Assembly (NCBI RefSeq): GCF_003334815.1
Contig: NZ_QOWO01000026.1
DNA from: Escherichia coli
GTDB lineage: Bacteria; Pseudomonadota; Gammaproteobacteria; Enterobacterales; Enterobacteriaceae
Length of the DNA: 62,123 nucleotides
Reading direction: 5' to 3' (one strand)
Below are positions 17,664-18,318 of this stretch, one piece after another. Made by a program: the position numbers and the translations under genes. Under the pieces are notes generated by a model. It made no database searches and had not been told where the DNA came from. It saw nothing but the letters and a program-made list of their open reading frames with translations. The stretch's first letter is position 1, and each line of letters begins with the position of its first letter.

Positions 17664-17930
17664 ATGGACATTAACAACAAAGCCCGCATTCATTGGGCAT
17701 GCCGCCGTGGTATGCGCGAACTCGATATTTCAATCATGCCGTTTTTCGAACATGAGTACGACAGCTTAAGCGATGACGAAAAACGCATCTTTATTCGTCT
17801 GCTGGAATGTGACGATCCGGACCTGTTTAACTGGCTGATGAATCACGGTAAACCGGCCGATGCAGAACTGGAAATGATGGTCCGACTCATCCAGACACGG
17901 AACCGGGAACGTGGTCCTGTGGCAATCTGA
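17664..17930 (+). CDS. sdhE: FAD assembly factor SdhE (CptB antitoxin)
   Basis: 88-aa [35 protein letters not shown] with the conserved RGxxE motif. Confidence 0.95.
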
Positions 17931-18318
17931 TTTGCGCGTCTCCTGGCGCGCACAGTGGCTTTCCTTGCTGATTCATGGGCTGGTTGCCGCTGTTATTTTA
18001 CTCATGCCCTGGCCACTCAGTTACACCCCGTTATGGATGGTGTTACTTTCGCTGGTGGTGTTTGATTGCGTTCGCAGCCAGCGGCGTATTAATGCTCGCC
18101 AGGGGGAAATTCGCTTGTTGATGGACGGGCGTTTGCGTTGGCAAGGGCAGGAGTGGAGCATCGTCAAAGCACCGTGGATGATTAAGAGCGGCATGATGCT
18201 GCGTTTACGTTCTGATGGCGGTAAACGGCAACATTTATGGCTGGCAGCCGACAGCATGGACGAAGCTGAATGGCGGGATTTACGGCGGATTTTGTTGCAA
18301 CAAGAGACGCAAAGATAA
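17911..18318 (+). CDS. cptA: Inner membrane protein CptA (YgfX)
   Basis: 135-aa ORF overlapping the sdhE 3' end by 20 nt; two hydrophobic segments. Confidence 0.9.

Follow-up and report, generated by a model that had tools for sequence, protein, structure and literature searches.

In Escherichia coli, the last 20 nt of sdhE are also the first 20 nt of ygfX (cptA), read in a different frame. This overlap is genuine and is under purifying selection at the nucleotide level. Taken as a whole, the evidence is best explained, with a probability of roughly 0.6, by an old and selected overlap that loosely links a low expression of YgfX to sdhE, in a housekeeping pair rather than a toxin–antitoxin (TA) module. 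The genes, their overlap and the TA claim are already known from databases and the literature. What is added here is a firm rejection of alternative ygfX starts, a deep conservation of the stop/start register, and the assignment of the overlap to the predicted first β-strand of a PH-like domain in YgfX.

The sdhE–ygfX locus

The window analyzed here is a 62,123-nt stretch of E. coli chromosome in which sdhE and ygfX lie on the same strand, at coordinates identical to those of the RefSeq annotation. The coding sequence of sdhE (ygfY/cptB; 88 aa, FAD assembly factor) spans 17664–17930 on the plus strand, from an ATG at 17664 to a TGA at 17928–17930. That of ygfX (135 aa, inner-membrane protein) spans 17911–18318 on the plus strand, from a GTG at 17911 to a TAA at 18316–18318, in the +1 frame relative to sdhE (offset 247 nt). 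The open reading frame list, direct reading of the letters and RefSeq all agree on these limits, which bears out the 20-nt overlap in different frames that had been noticed in the original prediction. The dual-coding segment, GTGGTCCTGTGGCAATCTGA (17911–17930, plus strand), reads (R)GPVAI-stop in SdhE and M-V-L-W-Q-S-(D) in YgfX. The initiation codon of ygfX (17911–17913, plus strand) takes its GT from sdhE Arg83 (CGT) and its final G from Gly84. Similarly, the sdhE stop codon (17928–17930, plus strand) straddles YgfX codons 6 and 7 (TCT GAT), with its T supplied by the former and its GA by the latter. A RefSeq genome used for comparison, 100% identical to the window over a 1201-nt query, carries the gene order ygfZ (−), sdhE (+), ygfX (+), fldB (−), xerD, dsbC, recJ, and the two proteins of the pair are identical to WP_000354046.1 and WP_000244777.1. 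The locus is the sdhE (ygfY/cptB, b2897)–ygfX (cptA, b2896) operon of E. coli K-12, that is, the same locus with the same annotated 20-nt overlap and no structural difference.

The predicted identities of both genes were likewise confirmed by Pfam and RefSeq. SdhE matches the Sdh5 family (PF03937, E 5.8e-26) over residues 7–79, and its translation contains the RGxxE motif of FAD assembly factors as R15-G16-M-R-E19; the motif and the positions G16 and E19 have been described previously (PMC8621075). Full-length matches were obtained to PDB entries 1X6I and 6C12, whose chains are named YgfY/SdhE (E 8e-59 and 3.8e-58, respectively); these two entries and 6B58 all represent the SdhE protein. YgfX matches Cpta_toxin (PF07254, E 7.4e-50) over its full length, with residues 2–131 on model positions 1–132 of 133. 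Residue 2 is aligned with model position 1, and the same profile was matched by all 36 diverse YgfX homologues. Earlier work refers to the pair as sdhEygfX in Serratia (PMC5042078) and as cptBA elsewhere (PMC8621075; PMC3985639; PMC8132199). The start of sdhE is supported by Ribo-RET, by INRI and by the N-terminal peptide MDINNKAR (supplement of PMC13245402); the N-terminomics/TIS table of that supplement, which includes sdhE, holds no row for ygfX.

Homologues of the two genes are co-transcribed in Serratia (PMC5042078; PMC3985639), in Shewanella (PMC8621075) and in Acinetobacter (PMC8132199), and a promoter scan, itself a weak test, returned no promoter-like site inside sdhE. Downstream, an inverted repeat, GACGGC…GCCGTC (18322–18348, unstranded), is located in the 39-nt spacer between the convergent ygfX and fldB genes and possibly marks the end of the operon. 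It lacks a U-tract and is a weak part of the picture: the segment 18305–18365, which contains the stem, folds at −22.6 kcal/mol, and the terminator scan did not report the repeat at 18322–18348.

Several other features of the window were observed. The prfB gene (22452–23550) carries a programmed +1 frameshift site, CTT TGA C, at 22524, preceded by an internal Shine-Dalgarno-like AGGGGG, and it is annotated with "programmed frameshift" in the record of a related strain. A full-length Rfam match to 6S RNA (ssrS; 139.8 bits) is located between zapA and fau (2568–2751, minus strand), and the REP-type nucleoid-associated RNA element naRNA4/CssrE (Rfam RF02564, 75 bits) is located between trhA and ygfZ (16262–16339, minus strand), just upstream of the sdhE–ygfX neighborhood. 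Transfer of the annotation of strain 720632 to the whole window was ruled out by a difference in content after about 25 kb; start coordinates transferred beyond that point mostly do not fall on start codons. At about 25000–59750 the window holds some 31 kb extra between idi/lysS and tRNA-Gly(CCC) (59677–59750) as compared with strain 720632, in which an IS1 adjoins a truncated uacT and tRNA-Gly is at 28415. This region is variable between E. coli strains.

The ygfX start codon and selection on the overlap

A later in-frame start of ygfX, at TTG 17932 or ATG 18004, would mean that the start has been mis-annotated and that the overlap does not exist. GTG starts and 20-nt overlaps are indeed rarer than ATG starts and −4/−1 overlaps (PMC12548453, PMC10666635), and in E. 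coli the TTG begins just 1 nt after the sdhE stop. In the ygfX frame, a stop is found at 17875–17877 and the GTG at 17911 is the first ATG, GTG or TTG thereafter, followed by the TTG at codon 8 and the ATG at codon 32. The TTG (17932–17934, plus strand; Leu8 of YgfX) is the sole nearby in-frame start-type codon that abolishes the overlap. To compare junctions, the locus was fetched from 80 Enterobacteriaceae species, which represent the best 80 matches of a scan with a narrower homologue alignment, the diverse YgfX alignment being too divergent to seed a genome scan. Among these best 80 matches, the GTG is present in 80/80 species. Codon 8 is not conserved as a start: only 2 of the same 80 have TTG, and the others have TTA (35), CTT (16), CTG (11), CTC (7), CTA (7) or ATA (Ile; 2). 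Codon 32 is ATG in 65/80 of these best matches only; it lies within the first membrane helix, which would be deleted if this start were used.

Moreover, the GTG is fixed at a site that is synonymous for sdhE. In all 80 of the best matches sdhE Arg83 is CGT, the T of which creates the ygfX GTG; five other conserved Arg codons of sdhE mix CGT, CGC, CGA and CGG across the same 80 species. The fixed CGT is direct evidence that the +1-frame start codon is under selection. The same "cGTG" is found at the ygfX start in the distant loci L084–L089 and L091. In addition, YgfX residues 1–7 are conserved in distant homologues, non-overlapping ones included, and residues 2–8 are modelled with high confidence as a β-strand. 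We firmly reject a later ygfX start, which has only a very slight chance of being correct; the overlap is not a start-codon artefact.

Among the best 80 matches, the overlap is invariant except for a CCT/CCA change at 17918 in 13 species, which is synonymous in sdhE and replaces YgfX Leu3 with Gln (L3Q), and for one A→C change at 17925. More generally, synonymous variation in sdhE collapses over the last 11 codons. We calculated third-position entropy at conserved degenerate sdhE codons of the best-80-match species and found a mean of 1.08 bits over codons 2–77 (n = 56) versus 0.17 bits over codons 78–88 (n = 10). The latter value is the lowest of all contiguous windows of codons, and it was reached by no random set among 100,000 permutations of ten-codon sets (p<1e-5). 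On the ygfX side, synonymous changes reappear sharply from codon 8 onward, the first complete codon past the sdhE stop.

The low-entropy zone consists of the 20-nt overlap, where dual coding accounts for it, and of 16 nt upstream (17895–17910, plus strand) that were delimited by the same third-position entropy. These 16 nt have the sequence ACACGGAAYCGGGAAC; the conserved stretch, ACACGGAA(C/T)CGGGAAC, lies inside sdhE and directly 5' of the ygfX GTG. Relative to that codon it places GGA(A) at −12..−9 and GGGAA at −6..−2. The rare CGG codon at sdhE Arg79 is fixed in 80/80 species among the best 80 matches. We presume that this stretch is a ribosome-binding or standby region of ygfX embedded in sdhE.

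At the protein level, the two reading frames of the overlap differ in kind. On the YgfX side, an N-terminal motif, M-V-x-W-Q-C/S-x-L-R-x-S, is common to the 36 diverse homologues (27–57% identical) and is kept in loci without an overlap (L082 and L093). An AlphaFold2 model built on the 36-homologue alignment (mean pLDDT 94.2) begins with a β-strand at residues 2–8 (pLDDT ~94). Two transmembrane helices (12–31 and 36–62) come next, and they are followed by a cytoplasmic domain of six β-strands (65–112) with a helix at the C-terminus (118–134). YgfX is predicted to be a PH-like cytoplasmic β-domain interrupted by a two-helix membrane hairpin. Because of the conserved N-terminal motif and the modelled β-strand 2–8, the residues encoded by the overlap are a structural part of YgfX, namely strand 1 of its predicted PH-like domain. 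On the SdhE side, the overlap encodes a C-terminal tail, RGPVAI, that is not part of a domain. The tail is outside the Sdh5 domain, the Pfam match to which ends at residue 79. It is absent from a Vibrio SdhE homologue that is alignable only to residue 80, and it is partly missing from the construct of the FrdA–SdhE crystal (SdhE residues 6–84). In distant loci, the tail varies with changes of the overlap. Since the SdhE tail is non-domain and changes with the overlap, the YgfX N-terminus looks like the primary constraint.

Age of the register and its proposed link to sdhE translation

Twelve distant YgfX homologues were traced to their contigs and the junctions were read one by one. Seven of them, including Providencia, Erwinia, Mixta and a Rahnella/Ewingella-like locus, have an overlap of 20 nt, and one each has an overlap of 26 nt (Pantoea), 29 nt (Leminorella) and 14 nt (an AT-rich contig). 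The remaining two, L082 (1-nt gap, with an earlier stop) and L093 (30-nt gap), have none. YgfX is 28–50% identical in the distant overlapping loci, and in every overlapping locus examined the sdhE stop lies within YgfX codons 6–7 (xxT-GAx or xxT-AAx). What shifts among them is the start codon alone, by whole codons. The stop/start register is thus old, being conserved in at least five families of Enterobacterales. Locus L082, a metagenomic contig with a YgfX 59% identical, encodes an 85-aa SdhE that ends in …QQRKQ, and its stop lies 1 nt before the ygfX GTG. A clearer Shine-Dalgarno-like sequence, AAGGAAG, precedes this GTG, and the locus represents a natural comparison in which the overlap is removed.

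Outgroup gaps range from +30 to +37 nt, the latter reported for sdhE–ygfX in Shewanella (37-bp gap; PMC8621075). The overlap probably arose by loss of an earlier sdhE stop and read-in to ygfX. Stop-codon loss is the usual origin of long overlaps (PMC10666635). Metagenome assemblies also yielded SdhE–YgfX fusion ORFs of 166–217 aa (P0002, P0003, P0005, P0008, P0013 and P0022), which we considered as products of a programmed frameshift. This candidate was rejected. The point of frameshift near the overlap differs from one fusion to the next, or part of the sequence there is deleted internally, and none is more than a singleton or near-singleton. They look like sequencing or assembly errors and not like a conserved fusion.

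A rival explanation is a frozen accident: stop loss would have extended sdhE into ygfX, the overlap would persist solely through the constraint on both frames, and ygfX would be initiated independently at its own embedded ribosome-binding site, with no regulatory meaning to the arrangement. Exactly this origin has been described, with long overlaps from stop loss typically found to be uncoupled (PMC10666635), and dual coding alone accounts for the invariance of 17911–17930. However, the register survived while YgfX diverged as far as 28–50% identity, even though one stop-creating mutation removes the overlap, as in L082. The position of the SdhE tail outside the conserved domain and its variation with the overlap would suit an accident, as would the average strength of the E. 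coli Shine-Dalgarno sequence; yet some overlapping loci have no Shine-Dalgarno sequence at all. Elongating sdhE ribosomes must also cross the ygfX start, which makes complete independence mechanistically unlikely. Overall, we regard a frozen accident as unlikely, although it retains some real weight.

In the explanation that we prefer, ygfX is the second gene of a probable two-gene operon and starts in the +1 frame at the GUG at 17911, so that its first 20 nt precede the end of sdhE. Because this start and its modest ribosome-binding region lie wholly inside sdhE, synthesis of YgfX would be tied to ribosome traffic on sdhE, and two routes can be envisaged. Ribosomes finishing sdhE could re-start a short way upstream at the ygfX GUG, or new ribosomes could load on the ygfX start between passing sdhE ribosomes. 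The GUG together with a weak-to-average Shine-Dalgarno sequence would keep YgfX low and roughly proportional to SdhE, rather than at a tight 1:1 ratio. A weak, proportional and sub-stoichiometric expression of YgfX is what we favor on these grounds.

The original prediction went further and proposed tight translational coupling. Part of this holds: the genes overlap, and since the whole ygfX initiation region is inside sdhE, some dependence of ygfX translation on that of sdhE is plausible. The word "tight" is probably an overstatement, because the stop–start spacing of −20 nt lies outside the efficient range. Coupling is most efficient at spacings between −4 and +3 nt, and more negative spacing reduces it faster than positive spacing, with none left at −25 nt in one systematic study (J Bacteriol 2025 review, PMC12548453). 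The same distance counts against our preferred explanation, in that ribosomes should reinitiate poorly at −20 nt (PMC12548453) and independent initiation at the embedded site could supply all of the YgfX. Furthermore, the need for coupling is not evident in E. coli, because ygfX, at −4.3 kcal/mol, has the same anti-Shine-Dalgarno duplex energy as sdhE and falls close to the median value for the genes of the window. On the other hand, four distant overlapping loci are essentially without a Shine-Dalgarno sequence (dG ≥ −0.9), which fits an initiation that does not rely on it; the Shine-Dalgarno contrast between overlapping and non-overlapping loci is a trend only, with n = 2 for the latter. The GUG start, the Shine-Dalgarno energy of −4.3 kcal/mol, the distant loci devoid of such a sequence, the persistent register and the interacting products may all point to coupling. 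Translationally coupled pairs often encode subunits of a complex (PMC10666635).

RNA structure around the junction was scored by comparing predicted folds with shuffled controls. Two candidate hairpins were tried as unfolding mechanisms, one spanning the ygfX GUG together with its putative Shine-Dalgarno sequence (17896–17921; z +0.36) and a GC hairpin after the sdhE stop (17936–17949; z −1.44). Both were rejected: neither does better than the shuffled controls, neither has compensatory changes, and the pairs of both are broken in distant loci. That the hairpin over the start is no better than shuffles and shows no covariation also weighs against the explanation that we prefer. The second hairpin extends over 17933–17952 (core 17936–17949, GCGUC-UCCU-GGCGC) and starts 6 nt past the sdhE stop. 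It is formed by two ygfX Arg codons of unusual uniformity, CGC in 75/80 and 78/80 species among the best 80 matches; conservation does not extend to its outer pairs, and distant loci lack the hairpin.

Known overlapping pairs provide a frame of reference. Like sdhE–ygfX, which probably forms one operon and whose products are reported to interact, the trpE–trpD and trpB–trpA pairs (−4 ATGA and −1 TGATG overlaps) are co-directional, belong to one operon and encode interacting products, with the downstream start within reach of ribosomes terminating upstream (PMC12548453, PMC10666635). In contrast to the trp pairs, which are coupled, sdhE–ygfX has a −20 nt spacing and a GUG start, and its coupling is only postulated. 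The closest mechanistic analogue is the coat–lysis overlap of RNA phage fr. In fr and MS2 (−38/−50 nt), translation of a small membrane protein, harmful if produced in excess, likewise starts upstream of the stop of an abundant gene, and in phage fr backward reinitiation by terminating ribosomes has been demonstrated (PMC12548453, PMC10666635). The phage overlaps have a proven dependence on coat termination and a regulatory RNA structure, whereas no RNA structure is supported at sdhE–ygfX. By analogy, the −20 register, in which the sdhE stop is drawn from YgfX codons 6–7 and the GUG lies 17 nt upstream of the stop codon, might be a selected device for low-efficiency backward reinitiation. We put this forward tentatively and consider it rather doubtful. 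If true, it would set a small and fixed YgfX:SdhE ratio and bring nascent SdhE beside the nascent N-terminal β-strand of its partner. It would also account for a register kept across Enterobacterales while YgfX fell to ~30% identity.

A contested toxin–antitoxin label

The pair had also been introduced as a described toxin–antitoxin system. Such a report does exist, but the label is contested. It derives from one overexpression study in E. coli, Masuda 2012, as relayed by the papers that cite it (PMC8621075, PMC3985639, PMC8132199), and TA behavior has also been reported for the A. baumannii homologue (PMC8132199); both reports speak against our preferred explanation. In Serratia, the Fineran group found that SdhE and YgfX interact but observed no TA phenotype (PMC3985639), and the interaction is documented in a further study (PMC5042078). 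Nor is there a TA phenotype in Shewanella: cells survive the loss of ygfY, additional loss of ygfX (ΔygfYX) brings no improvement in growth, and YgfX overexpression is not rescued by YgfY (PMC8621075).

If the pair were a type IV module, tight termination–reinitiation coupling would ensure that CptA, the membrane toxin, is never produced without its antitoxin SdhE/CptB. The overlap and the apparent operon organization are in line with this, as are the reported TA behavior and the Pfam family name, "Membrane-bound toxin component of toxin-antitoxin system", and the Shine-Dalgarno sequence is weak or absent in several overlapping loci. In a type IV system, by definition, toxin and antitoxin share a target without binding to one another. 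The interaction reported in Serratia runs against this criterion (PMC3985639), and the −20 nt spacing is outside −4..+3, with coupling gone by −25 nt in a systematic series (PMC12548453). SdhE, for its part, has an independent flavinylation role that is well defined, including structurally, with solved complexes.

The distribution of the locus bears on the same question. A 1.2-kb query found a match in 5426/5426 complete E. coli genomes, essentially single-copy, chromosomal and in one syntenic context, with at least 95% identity in all but one. The sdhE–ygfX pair was found in at least 80 Enterobacteriaceae species, and the ygfZ–sdhE–ygfX neighborhood is found again, in many cases together with fldB, in several families of Enterobacterales. 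Homologues are also present in the insect symbionts Regiella, Arsenophonus and Sodalis, and the pair has been reported as highly prevalent across sequence types (PMC10790755). An accessory, patchy or mobile distribution is typical of TA loci, though not strictly defining, and is not seen here; the core, syntenic distribution of the pair is atypical for such loci. The sole interrupted match among the 5426 genomes is that of E. coli FXCREC180, which ends at position 928 of the query (about 18327 in the window), just past the ygfX stop. The presence of an OmpW-family gene under the match suggests an insertion in the ygfX–fldB spacer of this strain.

CptA/CptB was proposed as a second type IV system after CbtA/CbeA (YeeV/YeeU), acting on MreB and FtsZ (PMC8621075, PMC3985639). 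The sdhE–ygfX pair differs from CbtA/CbeA in its core, syntenic distribution, in the reported interaction of its two products and in the separate housekeeping work of SdhE. CbtA/CbeA resides in cryptic prophages and is variable between strains. The window does contain a well-established TA locus, of type I, to be set against the contested cptBA label: SIB RNA (Rfam RF00113, 133.8 bits; 1769–1919, minus strand) is antisense to the small toxin gene ibsC (about 1785–1844, plus strand). Overall, the TA role of sdhE–ygfX is contested and probably overstated, and a tightly coupled type IV module strikes us as quite improbable. In functional terms, an FAD-assembly factor with a membrane partner that it interacts with is a better description of the pair than a bona fide TA module.

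The annotated GTG start of ygfX and the 20-nt overlap can be considered settled as correct, a result of modest practical value. In E. coli and its relatives, a deletion or 3' tag of sdhE also alters the ygfX start region and the YgfX N-terminus, while the T17912C substitution, which turns the GUG into GCG, should abolish YgfX and leave the SdhE protein as it is. The conflicting CptA/CptB phenotypes could stem from sdhE alleles that affect ygfX through polarity or coupling. Finally, the core distribution of the pair and the predicted PH-like fold argue for YgfX being a housekeeping membrane partner of the flavinylation factor.
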